Shown piece after piece: positions 20,628-38,269 of a DNA stretch of 64,000 nt; position 1 is the stretch's first letter; each line of letters opens with the position of its first letter. The notes below the pieces were generated by a model. It did no database searches. It had not been told where the DNA came from and saw only the letters and a list, made by a program, of their open reading frames with translations. Source of the DNA: Candidatus Altiarchaeales archaeon (GTDB taxonomy: Archaea; Altiarchaeota; Altiarchaeia; IMC4; SCGC-AAA252-I15); NCBI GenBank assembly GCA_014727915.1, contig WJMO01000005.1, forward strand, positions 352,001-416,000, given 5' to 3'. The position numbers and the translations under genes are program-made.

Positions 20628-20632
20628 GAAGC

Positions 20633-21362: not shown

Positions 21363-21781
21363 AATAGAACAATTGAAACCAGATAATTAAAATAGTTTAC
21401 AAAAAAATATAAAATATTATGAAAAAACTTCAAACAACTTAAACTTTCCCCACATACCTTATACAGAAGTGTTTAGAATTAAACACAACCGTAAACTCCG
21501 AGAAACCGTTTTGCTCCTGATTAGAATAACTTGGTATTGAAAACAATAATTGGGGGTTATCAATTCCTGCCTCTTTGCCGCCTTGATGCCGATTTGAATT
21601 TTGTTTGGGTCTGATGAGACACTCAGAAGACATTCGTCTTCTGGTGCGCCAAATGTCCTAAAAAGCATTTGAGCGTTCGAACTCACGGCCAAATATATTT
21701 TTATCAGTTATTTAAAATTTTTTATCAATAGTTTTTAAAATATTCTAAATAATTAAAAAAATAGAAGTTTGGGATAGTTTT

Positions 21782-23160
<1,379 letters not shown>

Positions 23161-23726: not shown

Positions 23727-24788
23727 TCATCCGATAATGGCCTTTGCGAAATCGGCAGGGGTTACGCCAGGCGATTGGACCGCGGACGAACTGTAGATAT
23801 TTCCTATGGCATCGGCTATCGCTGTCTCATCCGCCTTCACACCAGCCAACGCCTCCTCGATCTCGCCCACAACGTCGGGGTAGATGAAGAAGTCACCGGT
23901 CAACACAACCTCGGAGATCACATCATCCTTCAACGATGAGGATGCTCTTATCAATCCTCCGGGGGACTTATGGGTTGACTCCACCACGTGAACGCCCTCC
24001 GATATCTTCACCTTCCTGAATCCGGGATGCCGGCGTTTCACCTTGTTCAACCACTCATCGGACACGAAATACCCATCCAAACCCTCAATGATCTGAAGTT
24101 CCTCGGGTGACAACTCCCCACGGACCAGCTCCACATCCAATGTCTCCTTGAACTTGGAGATCAAAACCTCCTTCACCTCATCACGCGGAGGAACGCTGCC
24201 AAGCTCCCGTTTCACGGTCGTCAGATACTCGCTCATGGACTTGTACACCTTATCCCTGAACTTCTCATCCGGCACCTTCAACAACCTGGACATGGCCTCA
24301 TAGTTGAAGTCCAAGATCAGACTGCCCACGACAACAACACAGTCGCCCATGGTCGCGGCCCCCGTACCCCCGATCTTCCTGTTATCCACCTGCAGGTCGT
24401 TCACAGGCCGGTGAAAAGCCTCAATACCCAACGCCCTATACGCCTCCACAGGAGCCTTCAAAAACCTGTTATAGACCTCGGTGATATCCCGTGGCGCATG
24501 GTCCTTGTGGAACATGATATGGTAGAACAGCTGGTCACGGTCCAGGTACACCGCACCCCCGCCCACACGACGACGGTACACTGGAAGACCCATATCCCTA
24601 CAATAGTCCAGGTCCACCTCCTTCTCCAGCTCCTGGTGCATGCCAACGCACACATACGGGTCACCGGGGCTCAACAGCGAGATCGTATCCTGCCCCCCCG
24701 CGCTCACGCTCTCCGCAACCCCGTGGTAGATGGTCTGACTCCGCAGGGCAGACACAAAACCCAAATCCAACAACCTTACCTCTCTCAT
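23727..24788 (-). CDS. lplA: Lipoate-protein ligase (LplA with C-terminal LplB domain; sLpl(AB)-like)
   Basis: RRRVGGGAVYLD, NDLQVDNRKIGGTG, C-terminal HKSPGGLIR..TGDFF; N-terminal SQTIYHGVA. Confidence 0.9.
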   Translation of the reverse strand: MREVRLLDLGFVSALRSQTIYHGVAESVSAGGQDTISLLSPGDPYVCVGMHQELEKEVDLDYCRDMGLPVYRRRVGGGAVYLDRDQLFYHIMFHKDHAPRDITEVYNRFLKAPVEAYRALGIEAFHRPVNDLQVDNRKIGGTGAATMGDCVVVVGSLILDFNYEAMSRLLKVPDEKFRDKVYKSMSEYLTTVKRELGSVPPRDEVKEVLISKFKETLDVELVRGELSPEELQIIEGLDGYFVSDEWLNKVKRRHPGFRKVKISEGVHVVESTHKSPGGLIRASSSLKDDVISEVVLTGDFFIYPDVVGEIEEALAGVKADETAIADAIGNIYSSSAVQSPGVTPADFAKAIIG

Positions 24789-24798
24789 AATATCACCA

Positions 24799-25629
24799 TT
24801 AAAACAACGTTTGAGCGGACGTCAACCCCATCGCAATGTACTGGACGCCCAAGAGGAGCAACACAACACCCCCAACATACCTTACGAACGTTAGCACATT
24901 GCTCCGCATGTACCTCTGAGCAACCTCGACAGAACCCCGCGCCAACATGATCATCAATGTCGGGGGTATGAAAGCGCCCACAGCGAACGAGGTGATGATG
25001 AGCACCGCCTTGCCCAGGGAGAACAGCAGGGAAGGCGCGGAGGCCGCGTTCGCCAACGCAACAGCGGAGATGGGAGCCAAGAACACGGACGCCTCCACCG
25101 TGCACACGAACCCCGTGACAGTCCCCCAGACCATGTACTCGACAGGGTGGTTCACGCTGAACACCGGCAGCTTCAAGTATTTGAACACCTGGGAGGTGAT
25201 GTAATGGCGGATGTCCAACAAACCAAGGAGGTCCGCGGACAACGCCACCATGAACACCCCCGCTACCAGTATGGCCACGGGTGCGATGGTATAGGATATG
25301 ACACTGCCAGCCAGGCCGGTGACAATGCCCAAGACTATGAAGGTTATGAACCTGCCCGCGGTGAACAACACCGACGAATAGAATGCCGCGCGGACGTTCT
25401 CCTCCCCCCCGGCGATATACGCAGCCAATGGCACACCACAGACAGGGCAGGATATCAGCCCGAACAACAGCCCCAGCCAGAGAGCCCACAAAGCCGAAGA
25501 ACCCGCGTTCTCCATGGCAACCGCCATATACGGCTGAAGCACGCCCATGGACTCGAGCATCCACCCGCGCACAAATACTACCAACGCAACGAACAGGAAC
25601 ACCAGAACCCCGGCCAACACCTTATTCAT
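24799..25629 (-). CDS. CcdA/DsbD-like transmembrane thiol-redox protein
   Basis: Polytopic; GLISCPVCG in the first half and GFVCTVE in the second half; GR motif. Confidence 0.65.
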   Translation of the reverse strand: MNKVLAGVLVFLFVALVVFVRGWMLESMGVLQPYMAVAMENAGSSALWALWLGLLFGLISCPVCGVPLAAYIAGGEENVRAAFYSSVLFTAGRFITFIVLGIVTGLAGSVISYTIAPVAILVAGVFMVALSADLLGLLDIRHYITSQVFKYLKLPVFSVNHPVEYMVWGTVTGFVCTVEASVFLAPISAVALANAASAPSLLFSLGKAVLIITSFAVGAFIPPTLMIMLARGSVEVAQRYMRSNVLTFVRYVGGVVLLLLGVQYIAMGLTSAQTLF

Positions 25630-26413
25630 CAGCCCTCACCTCCGCCTCCTCTTTGGGCTCGTACTTCTCCAGGAGCCTGTCCAGCTCGCTGAAGCAGGAC
25701 ACGATCAAGGATGAGACGGATATGAACTTGGTCTCCACACCCTGCTTGCCGCCTATCTGGGAGAGTAGGGCCTCGCAGCCGGCGCAGGCCAGCGGGCACA
25801 GGTCCGCCCCCGTCGCCCCCGCGTCCGACACCTTCTTCTCAGCCAACGCGGTCATGGCAGCCCCGTCAGACCCCGCCCCGCAGCAGGCGCAGGGGTCGCT
25901 CATCTCCACATAGGAGCCGCCAAGGTAATCCACAATAACCTCGTACAAGTCTTTGATCTTCACGCCCAAGGTCCGGTTCAAGTGGCACGAGTAATGGCCT
26001 GTGACCTTAACGGAGGAGTCTAGCTTCCTGTCAACCAACTTGTCCATCTCCCCCGACCTGATCAGCGCGTACGCGTACTCGAGGATGTTAACGGACTTGA
26101 ACCCCCGCCGCCTGAACTCCGGGTGCTCGCCCAGGTATGCGGTGCAGGAGGCGCAGGTGAACAACACATCCTTTATGCCCAACCTGTTCAACTGGTTCAA
26201 ATTGTACGTCAAGCACTCTTCCGCACCCTCCTCGTCGCCTATGCCCACGGAACCGTATCCGCAGCACCGCTCGTTGGGTATGGTCTTATACTCCTCAAGT
26301 ATGCCCGCTTCAACGGCCTTGTCCAACAATACGTAGGTGGACAGCCTCAACGTCTTCAGCATGCGCGAGGTCGTGCAGCCCTCGAAGAACACAAGCTTCC
26401 GTGGAATCCTCAT
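25622..26413 (-). CDS. HdrB-like protein with two CCG domains
   Basis: FEGC..RCCG..CASC and HYSCH..CCG..CAGC. Confidence 0.85.
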   Translation of the reverse strand: MRIPRKLVFFEGCTTSRMLKTLRLSTYVLLDKAVEAGILEEYKTIPNERCCGYGSVGIGDEEGAEECLTYNLNQLNRLGIKDVLFTCASCTAYLGEHPEFRRRGFKSVNILEYAYALIRSGEMDKLVDRKLDSSVKVTGHYSCHLNRTLGVKIKDLYEVIVDYLGGSYVEMSDPCACCGAGSDGAAMTALAEKKVSDAGATGADLCPLACAGCEALLSQIGGKQGVETKFISVSSLIVSCFSELDRLLEKYEPKEEAEVRADE

Positions 26414-26997
26414 CTCCTGAATTTCAACCCCTCCCTAAGTTTTTTCAAGTCCTCAATGGCTTCCCCGCCAACTTCAGCCTTCTTCAAATCGTCCTCGAAG
26501 GGGTTGAAGAACTTCCTCAGCCGCTGGGCCTTGGTTATCCACATCCACGGCAGGTTGAAGCCCGAGCCTTTTATCCTGCGGACCACGGCCTCGTAGGTCC
26601 TCTTCATCTGCGGGTTCGGTATGGCCTGGATGCCGCTGATGGCATCATCCTCCAACGCACCCTTCAACTCCCTGTTGTAGATGTCCATGCACAGCTCGTC
26701 CACGCCCAGCTTCCTCGGGCACCGCTCCACGCAGGCTCCACAGCCGCTGCACAACTCGACATGGCCTTTAACGGCGTCATCGTATCGCCCGCTCTTCACA
26801 GCCACCATGATGTCCTTGGGCCCTATGTAGTCGCCTTCAACCGCGACGATGGGGCAGACCGCCCGGCACTGCTGGCACTCCATGCACAACACCGCGTTGC
26901 TCTGGTTACGCAGCGCAATATACGCTATCATGCCCAAGGGCACAAGCGTCAGGGCCGCAGCCACCCCAGCCGTTGAAACAAGCGTGAAAACCATCAT
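26410..26997 (-). CDS. Membrane-anchored HdrC-like 2x[4Fe-4S] protein
   Basis: N-terminal TM helix; CMECQQCRAVCP and CSGCGACVERCP. Confidence 0.85.
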   Translation of the reverse strand: MMVFTLVSTAGVAAALTLVPLGMIAYIALRNQSNAVLCMECQQCRAVCPIVAVEGDYIGPKDIMVAVKSGRYDDAVKGHVELCSGCGACVERCPRKLGVDELCMDIYNRELKGALEDDAISGIQAIPNPQMKRTYEAVVRRIKGSGFNLPWMWITKAQRLRKFFNPFEDDLKKAEVGGEAIEDLKKLREGLKFRR

Positions 26998-27800
26998 GGA
27001 AACCTCAATATCTTCTTCGGGCAGGCGTCAACGCATTTCATGCACTTTATGCACTCCGAATCCGTTATCGCCTTTCCCTCCTGTATGTACTTCTCAGCCA
27101 CCAGAACGTCCATGGGACACTCCTTCTCGCAGTTCAGGCATTTGATGCACTCGCCGGCAGAGCGTATGGGAAGCAGATGAAACCTGGCGAACAATGCGAG
27201 GAAGCCTCCGACGGGACAGAGGTAACCGCACCACATCTTCCGCCCGTGGAAGAACACCAGCAGCGAGACGATAGCGAACACGGGCACGGCCATGAATATG
27301 ACATGGCCCGTCAACCCCTTGAACAGCACGCCCGCGGGGCAGTAGTCGCAGAAGGACGTGTAACCCACGAGGAACGAGAGTATCAGGAACCCGAACAACA
27401 CCACATACTTCAGGTTCACGTCCTTCAGGTCATCAGGGGCCTTGTGGGCTCCCTTGAAGGGTGAGACTTTTTCAACGGCATCGAGGAAGGTGCCGAAGGG
27501 GCACAGCCAACCGCAGAACATCCTCCCAGAAAGCATGGCAAAGCATGTGAAGGCAGCCACGATGATATACGGTGATATGGTGGGGAGTGTTGTTGAAGGG
27601 TTCAACAGGTCAACCCGCTCCAAACCCAGGTATACGATGGACTCTGCTCCGGCCCGGGCGAACAAATCCTGCAAGTGCCAGAAGGGGTCCAGCCAGCAGA
27701 CGCCCATGGGGTTGTTGAACAGGAGATAGGTCAACGCGATGGTCAAGGCTACCGCAGCCGCCTGAACACCCAACCGCATGTGAGCTTTCTTCACGTTCAT
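26994..27800 (-). CDS. NapH/MauN-like polytopic Fe-S membrane protein
   Basis: GRMFCGWLCPFG, FCDYCPAG, WCGYLCPVG and two C-terminal CxxCxxCxxxCP. Confidence 0.88.
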   Translation of the reverse strand: MNVKKAHMRLGVQAAAVALTIALTYLLFNNPMGVCWLDPFWHLQDLFARAGAESIVYLGLERVDLLNPSTTLPTISPYIIVAAFTCFAMLSGRMFCGWLCPFGTFLDAVEKVSPFKGAHKAPDDLKDVNLKYVVLFGFLILSFLVGYTSFCDYCPAGVLFKGLTGHVIFMAVPVFAIVSLLVFFHGRKMWCGYLCPVGGFLALFARFHLLPIRSAGECIKCLNCEKECPMDVLVAEKYIQEGKAITDSECIKCMKCVDACPKKILRFP

Positions 27801-28144
27801 TCTACCGTATGCTTGTCCCTCTCCTCTCTGATGTTCAACCTGGTCAAAACCTTCGTGGGGCAGCCTTCAACGCAGAGGCCGCACCTGTCCCAGTCGAACC
27901 GGTCCTCCTCCTCCACCCATGATAGGCAGGCGCTCCGGTTGATCACCGGGAACCCCCGCCCGTCCACTGACATGGCGTTCACGGGGCACTTGCTGATACC
28001 ATAGTATTCCCTCGGGCACAGGCCCTCGAAGGACGTCGCGTCCTGCCTGGCCAACAATAGCCCCACACCCACGACTACCGCCAGCATGAACAACAGGCCC
28101 ATCCACCTGTTACCCCCCCGCCTGGTAGCGTCGCGTATCTCCAC
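27797..28144 (-). CDS. Membrane-anchored ferredoxin-like protein
   Basis: TM helix; LCP..KCPVNAM..AC..CGLCVEGCP; start may be at the second Met. Confidence 0.75.
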   Translation of the reverse strand: MEIRDATRRGGNRWMGLLFMLAVVVGVGLLLARQDATSFEGLCPREYYGISKCPVNAMSVDGRGFPVINRSACLSWVEEEDRFDWDRCGLCVEGCPTKVLTRLNIREERDKHTVE

Positions 28145-28147
28145 CTT

Positions 28148-28804
28148 CTAATCCTCCCTGTACAACAGCCTCGTCGGGCACACCACAGTGCAGACCCCGT
28201 CTTCGATGCACTTGTTCCTGTCTATGACCGGCTTCACCCTCCCATACTCGCCTTCGTCCTTCACCAGCTCCAAGGCGAACACGGGACAGATGGTCTCCCC
28301 CTGCTTCCCGAGGAGGCACCGTTCCAACCCAAAGTTCCTGCTGGCGTCCATGGCCTCCAATAGCACGGGGTTGAACCTGTAACCCACATCGGGCTTCACG
28401 ATCTCGGAGACCTTATCCCCGTTGAATAACACGATGAACGACGCGTCCTCGCCGTCGGAGATGAACATCTCCCCGCTAACGACCCGCTTGAACCTCACAA
28501 CATGCCCGCCCACGTCATCGTAGGCGTAGACGGAAAGGTACTGGCCCTCATACTCTGACCCTATCCCCTCGGACAGGGACACCCTCACACCCCCGTCAAC
28601 CGCTTCGATCGAATAGGATTCCCTCGGGAACGGCGGCCTGACCTCCGGCCTGCCGGCGTAGGCGCTGCCTATAGTCTTCCCCAGCACCTTCAAACCTCCC
28701 CCGCTCATCGCCGCGCTCGCCAGGTAGACCATGACCACAACCACGGCTATGAAAGCCAGTATGTTGTTCCTATTCATTGAAGACACCATCCTCCTTAAGA
28801 TCAC
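28148..28804 (-). CDS. Membrane-anchored protein with C-terminal ferredoxin-like domain
   Basis: TM helix, beta-rich middle, RCLLG..ICPVFAL..KCIEDGVCTVVCP; start may be 28777 (MNRNN). Confidence 0.75.
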   Translation of the reverse strand: MILRRMVSSMNRNNILAFIAVVVVMVYLASAAMSGGGLKVLGKTIGSAYAGRPEVRPPFPRESYSIEAVDGGVRVSLSEGIGSEYEGQYLSVYAYDDVGGHVVRFKRVVSGEMFISDGEDASFIVLFNGDKVSEIVKPDVGYRFNPVLLEAMDASRNFGLERCLLGKQGETICPVFALELVKDEGEYGRVKPVIDRNKCIEDGVCTVVCPTRLLYRED

Positions 28805-29246
28805 GTATCGTATCCGTTATGGGCAGCTCGATGGGGCAGCTGCGCTCGCAGGCGCCCTCCAACGGGTCGTACTTGGCAGCGTCTTTGACCCTGAGCATGC
28901 GAACCTCCACGACCAAACCCTCGCCGAACCGTTCTATTGCCTCTCCAGCGGTCATCCGCTCCCCATCCACCTCAACGGTCATGTCCGGGTCCGTGCTATA
29001 GGCCTCGTCCAACCTTAGCTGGAGGTTCCGGGCGCTCATGTAGATGTCCGGGTCGTCCACGGCCGCCGCCACGACGAACTTCGCCACATCGTAGCCGAGG
29101 GGGCAGTTGAGGTTGCAGGCCCTGCACTGGTAGCAGGTCAGCGACCACGGATGCCCCGAACTATAGGCTGTGTAGGCGAACAATGCCAGGATTGCGGCTA
29201 TCACAAAGAACGCCACCACGTTGAAACGTCGATTCCCCTCTTCCAT
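28770..29246 (-). CDS. Membrane-anchored protein with a split ferredoxin motif
   Basis: TM helix; CYQCRACNLNCP near the N-terminus and ACERSCP near the C-terminus. Confidence 0.75.
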   Translation of the reverse strand: MEEGNRRFNVVAFFVIAAILALFAYTAYSSGHPWSLTCYQCRACNLNCPLGYDVAKFVVAAAVDDPDIYMSARNLQLRLDEAYSTDPDMTVEVDGERMTAGEAIERFGEGLVVEVRMLRVKDAAKYDPLEGACERSCPIELPITDTIRDLKEDGVFNE

Positions 29247-29250
29247 CTTC

Positions 29251-29400
29251 CTAGAGTATGTACATCAACAGGCCCACAACGGCCCCGCCCAATAGTCCCT
29301 CCAAGCTCACGGGGCTCGTGTTGAATGATATGTTGAACATGACACCAACCGCTAAACCGGCTCCAAGGTTCAAGGCCATTTTCATCCTAGTCTCGTCCAT
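29251..29400 (-). CDS. Small Gly-rich 2-TM protein B (49 aa; not in ORF track)
   Basis: Hand translation MDETRMKMALNLGAGLAVGVMFNISFNTSPVSLEGLLGGAVVGLLMYIL; fills the operon gap with 3-4 nt spacers. Confidence 0.8.
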   Translation of the reverse strand: MDETRMKMALNLGAGLAVGVMFNISFNTSPVSLEGLLGGAVVGLLMYIL

Positions 29401-29403
29401 CCT

Positions 29404-29562
29404 TCATAGGAGGGCCATCAGCAAGCCCACGAGCAAGCCGCCCATCACACCTCCCCTGTCCTTCCAACTGTGATCCAATGAAATGTTTATCATTATCCCA
29501 GTGACCAAACCCACCCCGAGGGCCGCCGCAAACAGTTCAACCGTGTATCCAACCATCTTCAT
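29404..29562 (-). CDS. Small Gly-rich 2-TM protein A (52 aa; not in ORF track)
   Basis: Hand translation MKMVGYTVELFAAALGVGLVTGIMINISLDHSWKDRGGVMGGLLVGLLMALL; ATGA overlap with the upstream stop. Confidence 0.8.
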   Translation of the reverse strand: MKMVGYTVELFAAALGVGLVTGIMINISLDHSWKDRGGVMGGLLVGLLMALL

Positions 29563-30881
29563 ATGAACCCCAACAAGCTTATCGTCAACGCCGCGAACCC
29601 GGTCCCAACCAGTATGCCCACCTGCTGGGGCCTCCCCGACACGCCGATGGCCGTGCCCAGGTTGCCCTCGCCGATGCCGCCGATGCCGCCGATGGGCGAG
29701 GGTCCGCAGGATGCCGCCGCATTAACGATGAAGGCGGTCAACACTATGGGAACCGCGAAGGCGCTTCCAGTAACATCTCCCAGGCGGGTGCCGAACATGA
29801 GCACCCCCGGTATCAAGGCCATCCCGATGATCCTCCCGCAGGGCATGGGCAGTATGGTGGGCAGGTTCACCAGCAGCACAGCCACACCCACGTAGCCGAG
29901 GGGCGTCAACGCCACATTCTCCAGCAATTCGATCAGGACGTCGAAGCTGCCCACCGCCACCAGCGCACCCGCCATTATGAAACCTGATATCATGGCCATC
30001 ACCGGGTGCAATATCACGCCCGCTACCAGGTCCTGTATCGAAGTTTCCGAGATCACCATCACGACCAATACTATGAGCATGAGTACCGTCTGGATCGGGA
30101 CCGGCGGCTTCAACACGAACACCGAGGTTATGGTCAGCAGGAATATGCCCAACGCCAGGTAACCGGACCTGGGGATCTTCTCAGTCTTCTCCTTTTTCTC
30201 CTCAGCCTCCTCCTCAACGTTCAACAATGACTCGGACGGCATTATCCTGTATATGAACCTGGTTGACAGCATGGTAACCGCCGTTATCAGCATTATAGCT
30301 ATCTGCTGGGCGTTCCCGAAGGATCCCAGCTCGTAGCCGCCCATCCCCTCCCCGACCATGCCGATGCCGCCGATGGGCGAGGGTCCGCAGGATGCCGCCG
30401 CATTAACGATGAAGCCGAAGACGATGATGCTAGCCAGCAGGGGGCTCTTCTTCGCCTTCGCGATGTTATGGCCGAACAGTATCGCCGCGGGTATGAGCGC
30501 GGCAGCCATTATCCTCCCGCAGGGCATCGCAAGTATCGTGGGAGTGTTCACCAGCAACGCGACCGTGCCCGTCATCCCCACTGGTGTCCTGCTCGCCCGC
30601 TCGAGCAGGTGGATCGCCGCCCGGAAGGCTCCCGCAGCCTCTAGGGCTCCGGCAACCAGGAAACCAGCTATCAACGCGGTGATCGGGTGCAGGTACAGGT
30701 TGGACATGAGCTCCCTGACGCCCACGCTGTTGCCTGACATGAACGCCAATACAACCAGGACAATCGATGATAGGATCAGCGCTGACTGTATCGGGAGGAT
30801 GTCCTGCCGTATCCACCCCCGGAGCGATGCTACTATCACCCCGAAGAAGATTATCAACCCGGTCAAGCCCAGCAAGTCCAT
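29559..30881 (-). CDS. Internally duplicated polytopic membrane protein (ion-transporter-superfamily-like) with four symmetric Cys
   Basis: Each half carries LHP, LVNxPTILxMPCGRI and FIVNAAASCGPSPIGGIG; roughly 12-14 TM segments. Confidence 0.75.
   Translation of the reverse strand: MDLLGLTGLIIFFGVIVASLRGWIRQDILPIQSALILSSIVLVVLAFMSGNSVGVRELMSNLYLHPITALIAGFLVAGALEAAGAFRAAIHLLERASRTPVGMTGTVALLVNTPTILAMPCGRIMAAALIPAAILFGHNIAKAKKSPLLASIIVFGFIVNAAASCGPSPIGGIGMVGEGMGGYELGSFGNAQQIAIMLITAVTMLSTRFIYRIMPSESLLNVEEEAEEKKEKTEKIPRSGYLALGIFLLTITSVFVLKPPVPIQTVLMLIVLVVMVISETSIQDLVAGVILHPVMAMISGFIMAGALVAVGSFDVLIELLENVALTPLGYVGVAVLLVNLPTILPMPCGRIIGMALIPGVLMFGTRLGDVTGSAFAVPIVLTAFIVNAAASCGPSPIGGIGGIGEGNLGTAIGVSGRPQQVGILVGTGFAALTISLLGFI
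29679..30414. repeat. 55-bp perfect intragenic direct repeat (29679-29733 and 30360-30414)
   Basis: GCCGATGCCGCCGATGGGCGAGGGTCCGCAGGATGCCGCCGCATTAACGATGAAG occurs twice, identical. Confidence 0.9.
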
Positions 30882-30882
30882 A

Positions 30883-31245
30883 CTAGAACCTCACCTTCCC
30901 CACTCTGTTGGCTATGGTCCTGGAGCCGATTTCGGTCAATCCCACCCTGGAGCCGACGGAGAGCTTGTCTATGCAGATGTTGCAGGGGCTTGTCTCAGCG
31001 GATACTACACTACCATCCTCCAATTCGACTTTCAAGGGCAGGCTGGCCTTGCCGGACTGGTCGCCCGTAGAACATGACATGCACCCGTTCACGGAGCAGG
31101 CTTTCACACCCTCCAAACCCAGCGAGAGTATAACACCTGTCCGCTGGGGTCTGAATAGGGTCTTGAAGTTCAGGTAGACCAGGTAGATGCCCAGGGCTAT
31201 CAAAAAACCGAAAACGCCCTGGTTTACCGCTTCGACCGGGTTCAT
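30883..31245 (-). CDS. Membrane-anchored Cys-rich small protein (120 aa)
   Basis: True start MNPVEAV (31245, or GTG 31251); TM helix, then CSVNGCMSC and SPCNIC; the ORF-track extension overlaps gcvH. Confidence 0.75.
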   Translation of the reverse strand: MNPVEAVNQGVFGFLIALGIYLVYLNFKTLFRPQRTGVILSLGLEGVKACSVNGCMSCSTGDQSGKASLPLKVELEDGSVVSAETSPCNICIDKLSVGSRVGLTEIGSRTIANRVGKVRF

Positions 31246-31247
31246 GA

Positions 31248-31676
31248 TCACTTGGCGTGCTTCTGGACTTCGGCCTTCTGCCACTCCACGGCGGCGTCGC
31301 CCTTCATGAGGTTGTCCACCTCGCCGGGGTCGCTCATCTCGACCTCGAAGATCCAGCCCTCCCCGTAGGGGTCGCTGTTTATCTTCGAGGGGTCGTCGTA
31401 TAGGTCCTGGTTCACCGCTGTTATGCTCCCCGAAACTGGCGCGTAGAGGTCGCCCACCCATTTCTTCGTCTCTATGGTGCCGACCTTGTCGTCCTGTTTG
31501 ACCTCGTCGCCCTCGAAGGGCATCATCACATAGCTTATCTCTCCGGCCAGCTTCTGCGTGAAGTCTGTGGCGCCGACCTTGCACTTGTTGCCTTCGACCT
31601 TCGCCCAGTAGTGCTCCCTGTGATAGTAGAGCTCTTCCGGGAGGTCGTATCCTTCAACGTCAACCATCCAAATCAC
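31248..31676 (-). CDS. gcvH: GcvH-like lipoyl carrier protein (LbpA-like KW motif)
   Basis: LYYHREHYW, VGATDF, GTIETKKWVGDLYAPVSG (lipoyl Lys before Trp), INSDPYGEGW. Confidence 0.88.
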   Translation of the reverse strand: MIWMVDVEGYDLPEELYYHREHYWAKVEGNKCKVGATDFTQKLAGEISYVMMPFEGDEVKQDDKVGTIETKKWVGDLYAPVSGSITAVNQDLYDDPSKINSDPYGEGWIFEVEMSDPGEVDNLMKGDAAVEWQKAEVQKHAK

Positions 31677-31683
31677 CTATGAA

Positions 31684-32520
31684 TTATACTGGGGTGTAAG
31701 CGTATGCCTTGCCAAACGGCCTTGATGAACTGGGAGCTATCTTCGTGAACTTCTCTCCCTTCAGGAGCTCCGCTGGCACGTTGAAGTGGTCGCAGAACTT
31801 CTTCAATATCTCGTTCAACTCCCTCTGGTCCTCCTCGCTCATCTCCTTATTGGACGCGTATATGCCCAGCAGCTCCTCGCGGACGTCCCCGCGCATGTAT
31901 ATCTTCCCCCCGTGGATGCCGGCTCCAAGGTCTGTCTGGGCCAGTTCACACTCCATGAGCTTGATCTTCTTGGGGTCGATGTTCTTCTTCTCCATGGGCT
32001 TGCTCCGGTCCTTTATCGCATCTGTGAAGTCCAGTCCAAGGACTGCTATGATCCCCCCTGCCATGTACTCTCCACAGTACTGTTTCACGCTGCCGCCGTA
32101 TACTATGGTGGGCACGTTCTCCTTGAACTCCTTCATGTGTATGCCGATCCTGGATCCGCCGTTGCCCATTATGTATATCTCGCCGCCGCGGGCGCCCATG
32201 CCCGTAATGTCCCATGAGTCCCCGTAGACGATTATCTCCCCCTTGTTCAGCGTGTTCCCGAGGAGGTATTCGCTGCATCCGTGGACTATCACCTTCGGGC
32301 CTTCCATGAACACCCCCAAGTCCAAGCCCGCGTCGCCGAACAGTTCCAAGGTTATGTCCTTCTTTATCCCGGCTCCGATGAACCGCTGGCCGTTGACGTT
32401 CTTGACCACGATGTGCTCCCAGCCGTCGGCTACCGCCCCCCGGATCCTCTTGTTCAACACCCGGTAGTCCATGTATTCGCCGTTCTCCCGCGCGTTTATT
32501 ATGAACTTGTTCTCTGACAT
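31684..32520 (-). CDS. Glutamate synthase GXGXG-domain subunit (GltB3)
   Basis: NVNGQRFIG, repeated GXGXG beta-helix units, GEYMAGG; start MSENKF. Confidence 0.88.
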   Translation of the reverse strand: MSENKFIINARENGEYMDYRVLNKRIRGAVADGWEHIVVKNVNGQRFIGAGIKKDITLELFGDAGLDLGVFMEGPKVIVHGCSEYLLGNTLNKGEIIVYGDSWDITGMGARGGEIYIMGNGGSRIGIHMKEFKENVPTIVYGGSVKQYCGEYMAGGIIAVLGLDFTDAIKDRSKPMEKKNIDPKKIKLMECELAQTDLGAGIHGGKIYMRGDVREELLGIYASNKEMSEEDQRELNEILKKFCDHFNVPAELLKGEKFTKIAPSSSRPFGKAYAYTPV

Positions 32521-32525
32521 ATTCT

Positions 32526-34055
32526 TCACTCTCCCGCGTGCTTGACACCCAGTATCTGGGCCTCGTGGGGGTTGGGTCCGATGTACCTCAGCCTGCCCCT
32601 GTTGCCTATGAAGGACTCGACCGCGTCGATGCCCATTATGCCCAATACCTCCTCCAATTCCGCGTGCCAGGCGTTGAACAGGTTCACAACCCTCTGGGTG
32701 GCCCATTCCACGTCCACCCGCTTGCCCAGGTCCGGGCGTCCGGTGGCAATGCCCCAGCTGCACTGGCCCCTGTGGCACTGCTGGCATACGGTGCAGCCCA
32801 TGGCCATCAGCACCGAAGTGGATATCATCCCGCAGTCCGCCCCCAAGGCGAGCATCTTGACCAGGTCCGCGGAGCTCCTCAGAGAACCGCCAGCGACCAA
32901 TGTTACCTTGTGCCTGATGCCCTGGCGGGTCAGGTGCCGGTCCGTCGCGGCGACAGCCAGCTCTATGGGTATGCCCGTGTTGTCCCTCACAACCCTCGGT
33001 GCGGCTCCCGTGCCCCCGCGCAAACCGTCTATGGTGATGAAGTCCGCGTTCGCGTGCACTATCCCCGAGGCGATGGCAGGCGCGTTGTTGACGGCCGCGA
33101 TCTTCACACCCACAGGGACCTTGTAGTCTGTGGCCTCGTGCAATGCGGCTATCAGCGTTTTCAAGTCTTCAATTGAGTATATGTCGTGCTGTGGGTTGGG
33201 GCTCAAGGCGTCGGTACCCTCGGGTATGCCCCTGGTGTCGGCGATCATCTCGTTCACCTTCTCGCCTGGCAGCTGCCCTCCGTGTCCCGGCTTAGCGCCC
33301 TGCCCGATCTTGATTTCCAACGCCGCCACGTCCAGGTAGTCCGGCCCCACTCCGAAACGCCCGGATGCGACCTCGCTGACTATGTTGGCCTTGTAGGGTC
33401 TTAGGCTGACGTGCAGTCCGCCCTCTCCTGTCCCCATCAGCGTGCCCACCTTCTCGGCGGCCCGAATCATTGAGATGTAGGCGTTGTATGACAGCGATCC
33501 CAGGCTCATGTGGCCTATGAACAATGGCATGGACATCCTGACGTTAGGGGGTATGTCCTCGACCTCGTAGCCTTTCTTCATGTCCTTGACGTCCAGCCGG
33601 TCGATCTTCTTCCCCAGGAATGTGACCGTCTCCACAGGCTCTCTCAGCGCGTCTATGGCCGGGTTGGTGACCTGGCATGCGTCCCATACGAGGTTGTCGA
33701 ACACGGACGGTTTAGGCTGGTCGCAGCCCATCCCCGTCAGCAATACCCTGCCGGTCCGGGCGTTCTCGTAGATCACTCTGTGGTAGTATGTGGTCCAGTT
33801 CGCGTGGGGTGAATAGGTTCCCGGGTGGTTCCGGACGGTTATCGCGTCCACGGGGCAGAATACGGTGCACCTCTGGCATGCGACGCAGTTGCTGTCCTTT
33901 GAAACATAGGGTTTCTTCTCGTCTTTATCCCATTTTATGCAGTCGTAGGTGCAGTTCACAGCGCAACGCCTGCACTTGGTGCACTTGTCCAGGTCTATGT
34001 CGACCTTGAACTTGGCTAGCATAGTGTCCTGTATGGTCTTCAACTCATGGTTCAT
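32526..34055 (-). CDS. gltB: Archaeal glutamate synthase FMN-binding subunit with N-terminal 2x[4Fe-4S] (GltB2)
   Basis: MSLGSLS, GTGEGG, VASGRFGV, EIKIGQGAKPGHGGQLPGEKV, HDIYSIEDL, CTVCQQCHRGQC; start MNHELK. Confidence 0.93.
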   Translation of the reverse strand: MNHELKTIQDTMLAKFKVDIDLDKCTKCRRCAVNCTYDCIKWDKDEKKPYVSKDSNCVACQRCTVFCPVDAITVRNHPGTYSPHANWTTYYHRVIYENARTGRVLLTGMGCDQPKPSVFDNLVWDACQVTNPAIDALREPVETVTFLGKKIDRLDVKDMKKGYEVEDIPPNVRMSMPLFIGHMSLGSLSYNAYISMIRAAEKVGTLMGTGEGGLHVSLRPYKANIVSEVASGRFGVGPDYLDVAALEIKIGQGAKPGHGGQLPGEKVNEMIADTRGIPEGTDALSPNPQHDIYSIEDLKTLIAALHEATDYKVPVGVKIAAVNNAPAIASGIVHANADFITIDGLRGGTGAAPRVVRDNTGIPIELAVAATDRHLTRQGIRHKVTLVAGGSLRSSADLVKMLALGADCGMISTSVLMAMGCTVCQQCHRGQCSWGIATGRPDLGKRVDVEWATQRVVNLFNAWHAELEEVLGIMGIDAVESFIGNRGRLRYIGPNPHEAQILGVKHAGE

Positions 34056-35182
34056 CCTAGGTTCACCCCCTCGAACACTTCCCCGGTCCCGCGGGTCTTG
34101 ATGCCCTCCTTTGACACTATGACCGGCACGCCCGGGTTGGGCTGCCAGTAGTCGCCAGTGTCGCATACGGTGCGTATCGAAGACAGCTCGCTGGCGCAGT
34201 AGAACGTGTTGCTGTCCCCGTCGTATGCGGCGATCATGGGCCTCAGCTTCTTCCGGTCCGTGTGGGCTATCATCGTCGGCTCCGGGTCGTCCGTAGTTAT
34301 CACGATCGAGAAGGGGCCGTTGGCCAGTGCGCTCCGGTAGGTCTGCCTTATGTAATTCATCCACCGCTTTCTCTCGGGACTCATGAGGTTGATGTCCCTC
34401 CAGTAGGGGGGTGCTATGGCGGTGGTCGCTATCTGGTGGACTATCCCCTTCGGGTATCCGCTCCTCCGTATTATGTAATCTACTATGTAGGCGAGGACTT
34501 CAGTGTCCGTCCTCAGCATGCACTGGTATCCCCGTTCTTCGAGGTAGTTTACGTTCGTCCCGTAGGATGTGATCTCTCCGTTGTGGACGACCGAGGTTCC
34601 GAGTATGTTGAATGGGTGAGCGCCGCCCCACCACCCCGGCGTGTTGGTGGGGAACCTGGAGTGGGCGCTCCACATGAACGCTTTCATCTCGTCTATCCTG
34701 TAGAATTCGGCTATGTCCGCGGCCCAGCCGTTTCCTTTGAACACGGCCATGTTCTTGCCGCTGCTCATGCAGAAGGCCCCGTCAATGGTGGAGTTCACGT
34801 GCATGACAACGTCCTTGATGTGCTCGTCGGCGTCCTCCCTCTTGGTGTTCACGAAGAACCTCCATATCTGCGGAGGTTCCCTTATCCTCTCCGTCTCCCT
34901 TATGGGGACTTCCTCGTCGAAGATCACGTCCGTGTGGGCGTTTAGGTACTCCTCCACCCTCTGTTTAGTGGGTGCCTTACCCGGCACTTCTTCGAGTATG
35001 AGCTGTATGCAGTAGTCGTCCTCGTGCTTTGGGAATATGCCGTGGGCTGCGAAACCCGCTCCCAGACCGTTCTCCCGTTCCTTCTGGAGGCGTATCATGT
35101 CCGCTATCTGCTTCCCCTCCACGGGCTTCCCGTCTATGTTGAACAGTGCCGCTATCCCGCACGCGTCATATACTCGGTTCAT
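34052..35182 (-). CDS. Glutamate synthase class II glutamine amidotransferase subunit (GltB1)
   Basis: DACGIA near N-terminus, RENGLGAG, HSRFPTNTPGWWGGAHPF, VHNGEI, TDTEV, LRP; start MNRVYD. Confidence 0.92.
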   Translation of the reverse strand: MNRVYDACGIAALFNIDGKPVEGKQIADMIRLQKERENGLGAGFAAHGIFPKHEDDYCIQLILEEVPGKAPTKQRVEEYLNAHTDVIFDEEVPIRETERIREPPQIWRFFVNTKREDADEHIKDVVMHVNSTIDGAFCMSSGKNMAVFKGNGWAADIAEFYRIDEMKAFMWSAHSRFPTNTPGWWGGAHPFNILGTSVVHNGEITSYGTNVNYLEERGYQCMLRTDTEVLAYIVDYIIRRSGYPKGIVHQIATTAIAPPYWRDINLMSPERKRWMNYIRQTYRSALANGPFSIVITTDDPEPTMIAHTDRKKLRPMIAAYDGDSNTFYCASELSSIRTVCDTGDYWQPNPGVPVIVSKEGIKTRGTGEVFEGVNLG

Positions 35183-36492
35183 TTTTTCTTCTTCTTGCTC
35201 TTTTCGATTATCCTGGTTATCTCCTCTGGGTCTGCCGGTTTCAACGGGTCCATCCCCAGGCGCCTCCTTATCATCTCGTTCTGTCGCATCCCGTATCCTG
35301 TGGACTTGATCATGTCCATCTTCATATGGATCACATCGGGTGCCTTGCCATTCTCCACCGCGACCTCCCTCAATTTCAGGAACAGGTCCTTCAAGCCTAT
35401 GTTGTTGGGGCATCTTGCCATGCACTTCCCGCATTGCAGGCAGTGCCATATGAGCGGGTTCTCTATGGCCTCGTCCAGCTTGCCTTCTTTCAGGAGGTCC
35501 ACGATCTCCAGCGGGTCGAAGGGCTTCCCCGTATCCTCTGTTATCTGGGCTTCCGTGCACTCCAGCCTGCATGCTTCGCAGTGGCTTATGAGGTCGTTGT
35601 AGTCGAAGTACTTCTTCACTTCCTCAAGTTTGGCTCCTTCCTCGTATTCGACACCGATTTTCTCGAGGGCTGGTTGCACGCTGGTCGCGTGCATCTTCAA
35701 TGCCATGTCCTCTGGACTTAACCCCAGTGCCAGTCCTATGAGCTCTGTGACGTAGAAGACGGGTATCGCGTGCTCTCTCATCTCCTTGGAGAGCCGGTCG
35801 AACTGCAGGAAGCATGTGGGGCATGCTGTGACCATGCAGTCCGCGTTCTCCTTTGCATGTGCCAGCTTGTTCTTCAGCAGCTTGTCCGCGTCTTCGCTGT
35901 TGAATGCTGCTATGGGTACTCCGCAGCAGTCCATCTTGTACGGGTAGTCGGCGGTTTCAGCCCCTAGTTTCCCGACGATCTCGTCGAGGGATGTCGGGGT
36001 GTCCGGGTGGTCGCTTTTGACTGCCTGGGGCCATAGGGCGTGGCATCCGTAGTGGACTGCGACCTTCAGGCCCTTCAGGGGCTTTTTCACCTGGCTGTTT
36101 ATGACGTTGATCTTGTTGTGTATGGCTTCTAGTATGTGTTCGACTTTCACGCTCTTCTCGTATCTCTCGGATTCCTTGAGCATGTCGTTTATGTGCTTTC
36201 GGGTGTCGGGGTATTCCAGTTCCCTGTGGGCTTTTTCGAATGTGTTGTAGCATCCGCTGCAGGCCACGAGGATGTGGTCTCCTGCGAGTGCCATGTTGCG
36301 CGCGCTTAGTGCGAGTGCTGCGTCGTGGTCGTATGCTTTCGCGGACACTGGGTCTGGGCAGCAGGTCCATCCGTCTATCTCGTCTGCTTGCAGTCCAATC
36401 TTTTCGAGGGCCTTGTTTGTTGTTAAGATCAGGTATGGTAGTGTGTTGCTTATGGTGCAACCCCAGTAGATCGATGTTTTTTTCAATTTCAC
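35179..36492 (-). CDS. HdrB-HdrC fusion (heterodisulfide-reductase-like)
   Basis: WGC..WTCCP..ACSGC and VHYGCH..CCG..ACPTC HdrB domains, then HCEACRLEC..WHCLQCGKCMARCP HdrC-like domain; start GTG 36492 or TTG 36486. Confidence 0.9.
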   Translation of the reverse strand: MKLKKTSIYWGCTISNTLPYLILTTNKALEKIGLQADEIDGWTCCPDPVSAKAYDHDAALALSARNMALAGDHILVACSGCYNTFEKAHRELEYPDTRKHINDMLKESERYEKSVKVEHILEAIHNKINVINSQVKKPLKGLKVAVHYGCHALWPQAVKSDHPDTPTSLDEIVGKLGAETADYPYKMDCCGVPIAAFNSEDADKLLKNKLAHAKENADCMVTACPTCFLQFDRLSKEMREHAIPVFYVTELIGLALGLSPEDMALKMHATSVQPALEKIGVEYEEGAKLEEVKKYFDYNDLISHCEACRLECTEAQITEDTGKPFDPLEIVDLLKEGKLDEAIENPLIWHCLQCGKCMARCPNNIGLKDLFLKLREVAVENGKAPDVIHMKMDMIKSTGYGMRQNEMIRRRLGMDPLKPADPEEITRIIEKSKKKKK

Positions 36493-36494
36493 AC

Positions 36495-36530
36495 CAACCT
36501 AAATATGGCATTTATTATTTAAATATTTAA
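36495..36530 (-). promoter_or_regulatory. Promoter of the Hdr-glutamate synthase operon
   Basis: ATATGGCATTTATTATTTAAATAT (+ strand) shared with the gdhA promoter; TATA-like. Confidence 0.6.
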
Positions 36531-36719
36531 TGATTTATGGTATAATGGTTTAATTATTAAACTAAATGCTTGTTTTAGGTGGTTAGAAATAATGTGTATT
36601 TTTATATGGAAAATGATTAAAATATTATAAATATTTTAAAAAATTATTGATTTCACAATATTTATATATCAATTGTAAATATCCCAACAACAAAAGAGGT
36701 TTAAGGGTTAAATTTAAAA

Positions 36720-37259
36720 GTGAAAAACAGGCTTTCCGATAATGAGAAGCGGGTTCTGACCTGCCTCATAAAAGACGGCCGGACCACATGCACGGAGATG
36801 GCCAGGGAACTGGGCATAACCAGCCAGGCTGTGGGGAAGATCAAGGAGAAGCTGGAACGGGAGGGGTTCATAAGCGGGTATACCGCGGTCGTCGACCAGG
36901 AACAGCTGGGAATCACCGTGCTCGCCATAGCGTTCTTCAGGTTCAAGTCCGGAGCATGGACCAAGATGGAAGAGAAGGACATACTCGACAGGGTCAAGGG
37001 ACCCCACCTCATAAACGTCTACAGGGTCCCAGTCGGCGACGTCACCCACATGGTAGTCTACGGATTCCGGAACATAAAGGAGATGGACAACTACTTCCAC
37101 CGCCTCCAGACCGAACGGGAGCACATAAGCGAACTCAAGAGCCTCTACGTCCTATCGACGGGGAGCGTCATGAAGGATTCACCGAACGAGCTCCTGCTGA
37201 AGATAATAGACGAGATGGGCCACGAGGAAATGGCAAGGCCCGAGACACCGTCAGCCTAG
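36720..37259 (+). CDS. Lrp/AsnC-family transcriptional regulator (paralog 2)
   Basis: Highly similar to 23181-23723 (GITSQAVGKIK, RVKGPHL, THMVVYGFR, LQTEREHISELK). Confidence 0.9.
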   Translation: MKNRLSDNEKRVLTCLIKDGRTTCTEMARELGITSQAVGKIKEKLEREGFISGYTAVVDQEQLGITVLAIAFFRFKSGAWTKMEEKDILDRVKGPHLINVYRVPVGDVTHMVVYGFRNIKEMDNYFHRLQTEREHISELKSLYVLSTGSVMKDSPNELLLKIIDEMGHEEMARPETPSA

Positions 37260-38176: not shown

Positions 38177-38269
38177 TGTAACAGATAAGATGAAAGTCAC
38201 GGTATAAAAATCCTATTTTCACTGTGAAAACGTCCTGCTTATAATCTACTATCGGTAATATCTACCAAC

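Follow-up and report, generated by a model that had tools for sequence, protein, structure and literature searches.

An Altiarchaeota operon in which a split glutamate synthase and an HdrB-HdrC fusion are encoded with a membrane redox module and a second lipoyl carrier

For the split glutamate synthases (GOGATs) of archaea, a physiological reductant is known or has been proposed in only a few lineages. A putative F420-dependent form, in which an FrhB-like protein acts as 'subunit 4', occurs in Methanothermobacter and in anaerobic methanotrophic archaea (ANME), as described in two earlier studies (PMC3087415, PMC9012536). In the sulfur-oxidizing sHdr systems, which contain proteins of the heterodisulfide reductase (Hdr) type, a GcvH-like lipoyl protein, LbpA, carries conserved N- and C-terminal cysteines and has its own ligase, as stated in PMC6067878, and 10.1101/2023.12.18.572138 adds that these systems come with the sulfur transferases TusA, DsrE, and rhodanese. 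Here, we describe a 17-gene operon of an Altiarchaeota genome in which a split GOGAT is encoded together with an HdrB-HdrC fusion, a membrane redox module, and a second GcvH-family lipoyl carrier with its own ligase. The operon lies in a stretch of 64,000 nucleotides (hereafter the window) that corresponds to positions 352001-416000 of contig C12 of a 1.81-Mb assembly that is 90.6% complete. An HdrB-HdrC input into GOGAT, as proposed below for this operon, would add a thiol-linked form of this central enzyme of nitrogen assimilation.

The reading that we favor, at a probability of roughly 50%, is that three units, each inherited on its own in other genomes, have been combined in this operon, that the operon is probably nitrogen-regulated, and that its parts may be connected by a lipoyl/Hdr mechanism. 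Unit A comprises the HdrB-HdrC fusion and the split GOGAT (g01-g04), unit B the membrane redox module (g06-g16), and unit C the lipoyl carrier, named GcvH2, and the second ligase (g05 and g17). The 17 open reading frames (ORFs) are all located on the minus strand, from window position 36492 down to 23727, and form a tight operon. With the start codons that we chose, the distances between consecutive genes from g01 to g17 are -4, -4, 5, 16, 2, 1, -4, 3, 4, -20, 3, -4, -4, -4, -8, and 10 nucleotides, thus ranging from -20 to +16; the real starts of g02-g06, g11, and g12 are internal to the long ORFs as listed, several of which overlap. The identical gene order was found at locus L001 of a related Altiarchaeota genome, G033, which holds 16 complete genes and, at the contig end, a truncated 17th, with identities of 52-83%. 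An earlier reading of the letters alone (the sequence-only reading) had reported 17 co-oriented genes with overlapping or near-zero spacers, a description that is borne out by these distances and by the repeated order in L001, and the labels that it gave to the genes agree with the domain calls for the operon proteins, which were made with Pfam and NCBIfam. The complete 17-gene fusion was found in only two related genomes, the present one (G000) and G033, and it is only in this lineage that the three units stand in one transcription unit. The comparative set consisted of 61 Altiarchaeota genomes; the metagenome-assembled genomes (MAGs) that were compared are 57-97% complete, and absences in them are to be read as 'not found' and not as proof of absence.

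The first gene of unit A, g01 (35179..36492; like all operon genes on the minus strand), encodes an HdrB-HdrC fusion of 437 amino acids, with two CCG domains that hold 10 invariant cysteines, followed by an HdrC-like Fer4_8 part with seven invariant cysteines. Residues 1-279 match the solved HdrB chains of methanogens (PDB 5odc, 8rvu, and 7bkb) with E-values of 1e-44 to 1e-49, and residues 324-422 match HdrC (E 5e-9), with a score of 52 bits against the HdrC model TIGR03290, which is below its cut-off of 160. The CCG cysteines (C12, C44, C45, C78, C81, C150, C189, C190, C224, and C227), as well as the seven of the HdrC part, are invariant in 7/7 aligned sequences. The former make up two intact CXnCCXnCXXC motifs, the signature of two non-cubane [4Fe-4S] clusters. 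The next three genes encode GltB1 (g02, 34052..35182), a class-II glutamine amidotransferase of 376 amino acids (GATase_2, E 8.6e-13) whose orthologues are 57-79% identical, GltB2 (g03, 32526..34055), a protein of 509 amino acids in which an N-terminal 2x[4Fe-4S] domain (two Fer4) precedes the flavin mononucleotide (FMN)/Glu_synthase domain (E 5e-124), and GltB3 (g04, 31684..32520), with a GXGXG domain (E 3.6e-23) in 278 amino acids. This division over three proteins (amidotransferase, Fe-S/FMN Glu_synthase, and GXGXG) is the one that characterizes the archaeal split GOGAT. GltB2 is the sole GOGAT of this genome, and no Fer4_20/GltD-type protein was found in the genome (90.6% complete), where an FrhB-like gene was not searched for.

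Full-length g01 homologues are present in nine further Altiarchaeota genomes, and at 9/9 of these loci the gene is directly followed by GltB1-GltB2-GltB3 (two with fragmented genes). When the 61 genomes were searched with GltB2, two types of GOGAT were distinguished. Type I (65-83% identity) is found in 13 genomes, 11 of which have the HdrB-HdrC fusion; these are 11/11 of the loci that can be judged, since at the remaining two the contig stops 116-328 nucleotides upstream of GltB1. Type II (52-54% identity) is found in five genomes, all of family f1, and has the order GltB1-GltB2-ferredoxin (Fer4_11)-flavoprotein (Pyr_redox_2 and Rubredoxin_C)-GltB3, and no HdrB-like or GcvH matches were found in these five genomes. 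Because g01 is the constant partner of GltB1-3, while type II GOGAT has a ferredoxin and a flavoprotein instead, we consider it likely that g01 is the exchangeable electron-input subunit of type I GOGAT. No description of an HdrB-HdrC fusion in this role, nor of lipoyl carriers in Hdr systems of Altiarchaeota, was found in the open-access papers and bioRxiv preprints that were searched (supplementary files excluded). A predicted complex of GltB2 and g01 had a score of 0.01, which is not evidence either way. Outside the Altiarchaeota, members of the g01 family bear Hydrothermarchaeota and Asgard names. Of note, the type II operons are located at L166:5838-13116 (G043), L167, and L168, and in L166 the operon is followed by ApbE and an RnfC-like gene.

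The HdrBC-GOGAT loci usually lie among genes of nitrogen assimilation. A divergent winged helix-turn-helix (wHTH) regulator, two Amt genes, PII, and GMP synthase are found in the surroundings of the other loci. The operon in the window has the orthologue of this regulator on its upstream side (36720..37259, plus strand), a divergently encoded protein of 179 amino acids with an HTH_24 domain that is 58% identical to the product of L054:2324-2908. Between this gene and g01 lies an AT-rich intergenic region of 227 nucleotides (36493..36719) with a TATA-like element, TTTAAATA, about 31 nucleotides upstream of g01, and this region, as read from the sequence, is likely the operon promoter.

Unit B starts with g06 (30883..31245), which encodes a protein of 120 amino acids that belongs to no known family and has an N-terminal transmembrane helix and a C-terminal Cys-rich domain (CxxC...CxxC); C58, C88, and C91 are conserved in 15/15 and C55 in 11/15 sequences. 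It is followed by g07 (29559..30881), an internally duplicated membrane protein of 440 amino acids that is discussed below, and by two small genes without family assignment, g08 (29404..29562), which encodes a 52-amino-acid transmembrane protein with a Gly-rich C-terminal helix and is conserved beside g07, and its paralogue g09 (29251..29400), which encodes a transmembrane protein of 49 amino acids. A segment resembling g08/g09 forms a C-terminal extension of the bacterial-type g07 members, and we therefore argue that these small ORFs are real subunits. Three membrane-anchored Fe-S proteins, whose cysteine patterns are atypical, come next: g10 (28770..29246; 158 amino acids), with the motifs CxxCxxCxxxCP ... 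CxxxCP, an RRF motif at the N-terminus, a weak Fer4-type match, and six cysteines conserved in 16-17/17 sequences; g11 (28148..28789; 213 amino acids), with a domain of about 120 amino acids, a C-terminal Fe-S motif (Fer4, 23.6 bits), and five cysteines conserved in 12/12; and g12 (27797..28144; 115 amino acids), with a weak Fer4-type match and six cysteines conserved in 9/9. The product of g13 (26994..27800; 268 amino acids) is a NapH-like polytopic Fe-S membrane protein with two Fer4_5 domains (E 7.7e-18) and a NapH/MauN match (E 6.8e-31), with two CxxxCP motifs, a C-terminal 2x[4Fe-4S] domain, and 15 cysteines conserved in 15-16/16 sequences. Its score against the NapH model TIGR02163, 107.7 bits, is below the cut-off of 213, and a Pfam scan of the operon proteins gave no Nap, Mau, or Nos enzyme. 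A second HdrC/HdrB pair is formed by g14 (26410..26997), a membrane-anchored HdrC-like 2x[4Fe-4S] protein of 195 amino acids (transmembrane helix and Fer4_8; eight cysteines conserved in 11/11), and g15 (25622..26413), a divergent HdrB-like protein of 263 amino acids with two CCG domains (E 2.8e-14; HdrB E 3e-6), whose 10 CCG cysteines are conserved in 16/16 sequences. Apart from g01 and g15, the genome encodes no CCG protein. The last gene of the unit, g16 (24799..25629), encodes a CcdA/DsbD_2-family membrane protein of 276 amino acids (DsbD_2, 26.6 bits against a cut-off of 24.9), and genes of this type recur beside the module at Altiarchaeota, bacterial-type, and some Thermoplasmata loci.

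The distribution of charges gives some indication of topology. For the products of g14 and g06, an N-terminus without charges and positive residues beyond the helix point to cytoplasmic domains (with g14 N-out and C-in), whereas the positive N-termini of g10-g12 suggest that the Fe-S domains of these proteins face outward. Tat-like RR motifs are present in g10 of 3/3 Thermoplasmata, 5/9 Altiarchaeota, and 0/5 bacterial-type sequences, and TatC is present in the genome.

A scan of species-representative genomes with g07 gave 20 loci, nine of which are in Altiarchaeota (62-81% identity) and the other 11 in Thermoplasmata or Methanomassiliicoccales-like MAGs (44-48% identity); the loci nearest to the window are those of Altiarchaeota MAGs. 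When all operon proteins were compared with these loci by tblastn, the module was found to be kept at 20/20, with g06 adjoining g07 at 19/20 and HdrB-like and NapH-like genes each present at 18/20, the misses being at contig ends. Its order in Altiarchaeota is g06-g07-(g08/g09)-g10-g11-g12-g13-g14-g15, after which a 4xCBS protein and CcdA often come next, and in Thermoplasmata it is rearranged to g10...g14-g15-g06-g07-small transmembrane protein-NapH. At the Thermoplasmata loci L012-L015, the NapH-like protein forms a fusion with a GltD-like flavoprotein (Fer4_20 and Pyr_redox_2; 745-755 amino acids; L013:11926-14172), as established by Pfam for the L013 protein, with those of L012, L014, and L015 grouped by ORF lengths and clustering. 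Upstream of these fusion loci, a DUF357 gene and a divergent MsrB gene are found. Another variation in Thermoplasmata is that g07 is split into halves in some members (L016:2445-4325 and L017-L020; P0367-P0377), with g06 or longer N-terminal regions joined to the first half (411-933 amino acids).

Metagenomes gave 65 further g07 loci, and the 20 of at least 10 kb were examined. Two of these are of the Altiarchaeota type with the full module, two of the Thermoplasmata type, 12 of a bacterial type, and four are more divergent; the label 'bacterial-type' is based on the NCBI names of the closest proteins (Desulfobacula, Deltaproteobacteria, Spirochaetota, and Terriglobales) and not on binning. 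The bacterial-type loci keep g07-g10-g11 and an HdrC-like gene, i.e. a reduced module, and their conserved neighbors are a DUF59 Fe-S assembly protein, DsbD_2, and two large Fe-S proteins; a peptidyl-prolyl isomerase (PPIase) and an outer-membrane-like protein also lie beside them. Unit B is thus an independent membrane redox module. Altiarchaeota and Thermoplasmata conserve it in the absence of GOGAT, and bacterial-type contigs retain a reduced core of it. GOGAT was found at 1/20 genome loci and at 0/20 long metagenome loci, and because of this the module is not regarded as an accessory of GOGAT. The sequence-only reading had named, as a condition that would refute it, a failure of the module to co-occur with gltB, gcvH, and lplA in other genomes; such co-occurrence is not general, as GcvH was present at 2/20 genome loci and at 1/20 long metagenome loci, and a lipoate-protein ligase (Lpl) at 1/20 genome loci. 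The combination in unit B of members or look-alikes of NapH, HdrC, HdrB, CcdA, and IT-superfamily transporters is an arrangement that is undescribed in the open-access literature that was searched. Soluble HdrA...HdrC-HdrB clusters adjoin unit B in L004/L100 and in G031/G030. Two Altiarchaeota loci, L002:7011-9496 and L003:37-2471, have NadA, a NifS-like cysteine desulfurase, and NifU directly upstream of g06.

The central protein of unit B, g07, has two halves that are 47% identical, and each carries the motifs MPCGR and NAAASCGPSPxGGIG. These hold four invariant cysteines, C121 and C348 in MPCGR and C165 and C392 in SCGPSP, as judged from an alignment of 40 members. An AlphaFold (AF2) model that was built on this alignment (pLDDT 87.7, pTM 0.88) was compared with known structures by Foldseek, which gave VcINDY (TM-score 0.68) and ArsB (TM-score 0.67), and also NaS1, TRAP-M, and YdaH, with E-values of 2e-6 to 1e-3. 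The model thus points to a fold of the IT superfamily (DASS/ArsB-like), and a language-model atlas reports SLC13/CitMHS-like features for g07. The score against Pfam CitMHS is 25.6 bits, i.e. sub-threshold relative to the cut-off of 31.9. Since a profile search of 1.84 billion representatives found only 68 proteins at E<=1e-3, all from its own family, the family is small and closed; its named members are all annotated as 'hypothetical', and the gene is always embedded in an Fe-S gene cluster. In the model, the four cysteines lie in short helix breaks (117/122, 163/173, 343/349, and 390/400), at positions that correspond in the IT fold to the tips of hairpins and the breaks in helices around which the substrate site is built. 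A likeness of g07 to RnfA/E or NqrD/E, in which an Fe-S center would sit between two pairs of cysteines, was considered and dropped, since Foldseek returned elevator transporters of the IT superfamily; this concerns the likeness and not the binding of a cluster by the four cysteines.

Unit C is composed of the genes g05 and g17. The former (31248..31667) encodes GcvH2, a second GcvH-family lipoyl carrier of 139 amino acids (GCV_H, E 2.9e-37) with the lipoyl-lysine K69 in the motif E-T-x-K-W, and the latter (23727..24788) encodes a fused LplA+LplB-type lipoate-protein ligase of 353 amino acids (LplA-B_cat, E 1e-39; Lip_prot_lig_C, E 5.4e-9) that scores 144.5 bits against TIGR00545, below the cut-off of 280. 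The carrier scores above the cut-offs of the GcvH models (NF002270, 137.8 against 117 bits; TIGR00527, 117.2 against 115.85) and below those of the GcvH-like models. K69 is invariant in 27/27 sequences, and GcvH2 has no conserved cysteine, its single cysteine being kept in 2/27. A canonical gcvT-gcvH-gcvPA/PB cluster with its own H protein is located at C12:307-311 kb, and another LplA (C12:299064-299660) and an E3-like gene lie near it, 65-78 kb from the operon, so that g05 and g17 are extra paralogues. The observation in the sequence-only reading that the operon lacks GltD, HdrA, glycine-cleavage P/T, and E3 genes was correct, the glycine-cleavage genes and the E3-like gene being located elsewhere in the genome as described. 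Close orthologues of g17 were found in no genomes other than G033 and G005, and several ligases are present in many genomes; as this gave no usable pattern, g17 was dropped as a marker.

Two classes of g05 matches can be told apart in the 61 genomes, a GcvH2 class with 55-76% identity, present in 25 genomes, and a canonical-like class with 33-47% identity. GcvT is present in 15/61 genomes, all of family f1, and was not found in 23 of the 25 genomes with GcvH2; because there is no T protein in these 23 genomes, GcvH2 would not be able to serve glycine cleavage there. HdrB-like proteins are present in 23/25 genomes with GcvH2 versus 5/36 genomes without it (both, 23; HdrB only, 5; GcvH2 only, 2; neither, 31). 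Also, a GcvH2-type gene was found in 11/11 genomes with HdrBC-GOGAT (the copy in G013 is interrupted by stops) and in 9/10 genomes with g07. GcvH2 stands beside three different Hdr-type modules. It is located directly upstream of g06 in G025 (L007), and in G031 it heads an operon (L138:3116-10259, contig G031:C3, minus strand) with the order GcvH2-FwdA-FwdC-HdrA::MvhD-polyferredoxin-HdrC-HdrB, in which FwdA is an Amidohydro_3 protein, FwdC a GXGXG protein, and HdrA::MvhD a fusion of 811 amino acids, with FwdB further on; the cluster in G030 (L142) has the same start. The idea of the sequence-only reading that the lipoyl carrier is linked to Hdr proteins therefore stands as far as the tracking of HdrB by GcvH2 and these three neighborhoods are concerned, and as a mechanism it is plausible and unproven.

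GcvH-family genes were found in 46/61 Altiarchaeota genomes, so orphan GcvH-like proteins are common in the phylum, and the eight module-bearing Thermoplasmata genomes (8/8) have two to five such genes each. In the two complete Thermoplasmata chromosomes from which the distance was taken, G063 and G065, the GcvH nearest to the module is about 70-105 kb away. In-frame stops are present in the GcvH2 genes of G010 (C45:4036-4446; one TGA) and G013 (C26:14408-14819; one TGA and one TAA), and these may be pseudogenes or assembly errors.

How these parts could work together is a matter of proposal. Dihydrolipoyl-GcvH2, the dithiol form, would be oxidized by g01 at its CCG clusters, and electrons would flow through the HdrC-type cluster(s) of g01 to the 2x[4Fe-4S] domain of GltB2, from there to FMN, and finally to 2-iminoglutarate. 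The potential of lipoamide is negative enough for the reductive amination of 2-oxoglutarate. A value of about -0.29 V for the couple is given in PMC6067878. We put forward lipoyl-GcvH2 as the substrate of g01 tentatively, as an idea with the odds somewhat against it. At the membrane, the g14/g15 HdrC/HdrB pair would interconvert the same (or another) disulfide/dithiol couple and would exchange electrons with a partner located on the membrane or beyond it, by way of the NapH-like g13 and the three anchored Fe-S proteins. The role of the four-cysteine protein g07 might be the binding or transport of a thiophilic substrate, or the transfer of reducing equivalents from one side of the membrane to the other, and the CcdA-like g16 and g07 might handle thiol chemistry across the membrane. 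That unit B recycles the lipoyl carrier strikes us as doubtful. In relatives with HdrA::MvhD-Fwd clusters, a bifurcating Hdr could use GcvH2 as its high-potential acceptor. In its widest form, the proposal would make GcvH2 a protein-bound 'heterodisulfide' for Hdr-type enzymes, with three modules (the soluble HdrA(MvhD)BC-Fwd, the HdrBC-fed GOGAT, and the membrane HdrBC-NapH-Fe-S module) forming a lipoamide cycle analogous to that of CoM-S-S-CoB, in which the membrane complex would represent a novel type of module for energy-linked or transmembrane redox reactions that is shared with Thermoplasmata and anaerobic bacteria; we hold this wide form to be rather improbable. Altiarchaeota are not methanogens and are assumed to lack coenzyme M (CoM) and coenzyme B (CoB).

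Several findings weigh against a shared lipoyl/Hdr mechanism. The score of g01 against the CoB-CoM HdrB model TIGR03288, 205 bits, is below the cut-off of 345, and the SdhE, LutA, GlcF, and GlpC families also score against the CCG proteins g01 and g15, as LdhH does against g01. CCG proteins are not always disulfide enzymes, SdhE, LdhH, GlpC, and GlcF being examples of families that are not, and we infer dithiol oxidation by g01 from the activity of HdrB. No GcvH, ligase, or membrane-module genes are present in the flanks of the nine other HdrBC-GOGAT loci. Since tblastn detected no HdrB in the bacterial-type modules, nor NapH or GcvH, the core of unit B does not need a CCG protein. The co-occurrence of GcvH2 and HdrB follows family boundaries, kin genomes are not independent, and shared ancestry may account for it; moreover, in 8/8 genomes of family f9, GcvH-like genes are present without GcvT or HdrB. 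Finally, among the 23 further loci of GcvH2 that were retrieved, only four are flanked by Hdr-type genes (G033, G025, G031, and G030), for which reason a strict rule of GcvH2-Hdr neighborhood was dropped; at the remaining loci, a ligase adjoins in one case and a CcdA-like gene in two, and none of these was found at 16/23. This predominance of non-Hdr surroundings (16/23) is what would be expected if the units were merely juxtaposed without a common carrier, so that g01 draws on a different thiol donor (small thiol or redoxin) or is an Fe-S adaptor for ferredoxin, GcvH2 and its ligase serve another role, and unit B works in redox or transport processes of the envelope in general, for example by sending reducing power outward or by handling sulfur, selenium, or metalloid species at the four-cysteine site. 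Such an arrangement is also consistent with the bacterial-type modules, which lack HdrB and GcvH and yet come with DsbD_2 and a DUF59 protein, near the PPIase and the outer-membrane-like protein, with the fusion of the Thermoplasmata NapH-like protein to a GltD-like NAD(P)H flavoprotein with an MsrB gene close by, with the likeness of g07 to ArsB and DASS transporters, and with the thioredoxin reductase (TrxR)-like flavoprotein upstream of the operon in both G000 and L001. It leaves unexplained why a second GcvH and a second ligase lie inside the operon, why GcvH2 comes first in the HdrA-Fwd operon of G031/G030 and stands before g06 in G025, and why GcvH2 persists in 23 genomes without GcvT, and we consider this explanation unlikely, though a serious contender.

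The sequence-only reading had gone further and taken all 17 products as one dedicated, lipoate-dependent, membrane-coupled GOGAT, in which the membrane module recycles the carrier, possibly by means of an ion gradient. The single tight operon in two genomes is in line with this, as are the fact that both CCG proteins of the genome are encoded in it and the distribution in family f1, where units A and B and GcvH2 are present together in two genomes while the other 19 have none of them, a pattern that fits inheritance in one block. However, the module is found without GOGAT at 19/20 genome loci and 20/20 long metagenome loci, and HdrBC-GOGAT is found without the module at 9/9 other loci. In family f6, units A and B are both present in just two genomes (G015 and G022), and there they are on separate contigs. 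Nothing links the module to an ion gradient, and g07, with the transporter fold of its model, has no assigned function. As a general system, a dedicated membrane-coupled GOGAT thus finds no support, with the full fusion being found in two related genomes only and best described as a lineage-specific fusion of separate units, and we judge the model of a single system to be quite improbable. A still more remote explanation is that the GcvH, ligase, and HdrBC genes form a sulfur-oxidizing sHdr-LbpA system as in Hyphomicrobium or Sulfolobales. The two HdrB/HdrC-type pairs, the GcvH-like lipoyl protein, and the dedicated ligase do recall the set described in PMC6067878. Against it speak the operon context, which is that of nitrogen assimilation, the scores of GcvH2, which exceed the GcvH cut-offs and remain below the GcvH-like ones, and the lack of a conserved cysteine in GcvH2, which differs in this from LbpA as presented in PMC6067878. 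Also, sHdr systems have the flavoprotein sHdrA together with sHdrC1B1 and C2B2, and the genome has no HdrA or MvhD-type gene and no further CCG protein, and a search for TusA gave 0 matches in the genome, in which DsrE and rhodanese were not searched for. Because HdrA/MvhD, TusA, and the LbpA-type cysteines are missing, membership in the sHdr systems was rejected, and we regard it as very improbable.

Some features next to the operon may be mentioned. A TrxR-like flavoprotein gene (Pyr_redox_2, 314 amino acids) lies upstream at window positions 37256-38200 (minus strand), and its counterpart in L001 (3274-4218, plus strand) is located directly upstream of g01. Thioredoxin reductases carry a CxxC motif. 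At the corresponding position, the TrxR-like protein has a single cysteine, and it may be a ferredoxin- or NAD(P)H-type reductase that is linked to the operon system. On the downstream side, a second wHTH regulator gene (23181-23723, plus strand), a paralogue with 67% identity to that at 36720-37259, and a glutamate dehydrogenase gene (21782-23134, minus strand) are arranged divergently, as are the first regulator gene and g01, and the two regulator genes bracket the operon. A comparison of the two regulator-flanked intergenic regions for a shared operator gave merely one AT-rich 10-mer in common, from which nothing is claimed. Just downstream of the glutamate dehydrogenase gene, at window positions 20001-22000, the GC content falls to 0.443 versus 0.52-0.60 elsewhere in the window.

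Beyond the reductant of GOGAT, the occurrence of GcvH-like proteins in Hdr-bearing genomes without GcvT extends the idea of lipoate as a partner of Hdr proteins from aerobic sulfur oxidizers to anaerobic archaea. The membrane module represents a small, sharply conserved, and unannotated family that is also present in cultured Desulfobacula (proteins P0045 and P0065), where it is open to genetics and proteomics.

Compared with described systems, unit A is closest in layout to the archaeal F420-type split GOGAT, which likewise has three GltB-derived proteins and one extra operon gene that supplies electrons, although the extra subunit is FrhB-like there, and here it is an HdrB-HdrC fusion with two CCG domains and no protein of the FrhB or GltD type. 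In having a CCG Fe-S subunit joined to a reductase that is not an Hdr, it also resembles the thiol:fumarate reductase TfrAB of methanogens, in whose manner it would operate, and both g01 and g15 match TfrB (NF004898) with E-values of 3.5e-15 and 5e-16, respectively. The catalytic partner and the order of the CCG and Fe-S parts are different in TfrAB. The donors of TfrB are CoM-SH and CoB-SH, and because Altiarchaeota are not methanogens, the thiol used here must be a different one. With the methanogen assemblies HdrABC-MvhAGD and Hdr-formylmethanofuran dehydrogenase, the locus and its relatives share the HdrB part of g01 and the cluster FwdA-FwdC-HdrA::MvhD-HdrC-HdrB in G031 and G030. Unlike in those assemblies, there is no HdrA in the operon, no MvhD/FlpD domain or further CCG protein was found in this genome, which is without HdrA, and GcvH2 heads the cluster of G031 and G030, while we know of no methanogen Hdr cluster with GcvH2. 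The sHdr-LbpA-sLpl(AB) systems have Hdr-type CCG proteins, a GcvH-like lipoyl protein, and a dedicated ligase in common with the operon, but the present organism is anaerobic, does not have HdrA, TusA, or the LbpA cysteines, and has these genes in a setting of nitrogen assimilation. As regards GcvH itself, g05 has the same GCV_H fold and lipoyl-lysine, but is not encoded with GcvT/GcvP, the gcv cluster having its own H protein. In unit B, g13 resembles the NapGH/NosR family in its two Fer4_5 CxxxCP motifs, its C-terminal 2x[4Fe-4S] domain, and its small ferredoxin-like partners, which perhaps face outward; its other partners, HdrC/HdrB and a four-cysteine transporter-like protein, set it apart. 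The model of g07, lastly, resembles the IT transporters (DASS/VcINDY, ArsB, TRAP-M, and AbgT) with TM-scores of 0.6-0.68, an internal duplication, and SLC13-like features, whereas it differs from them in having no significant sequence membership, in its four invariant cysteines at predicted hairpin-tip or helix-break positions, and in its setting among Fe-S genes.

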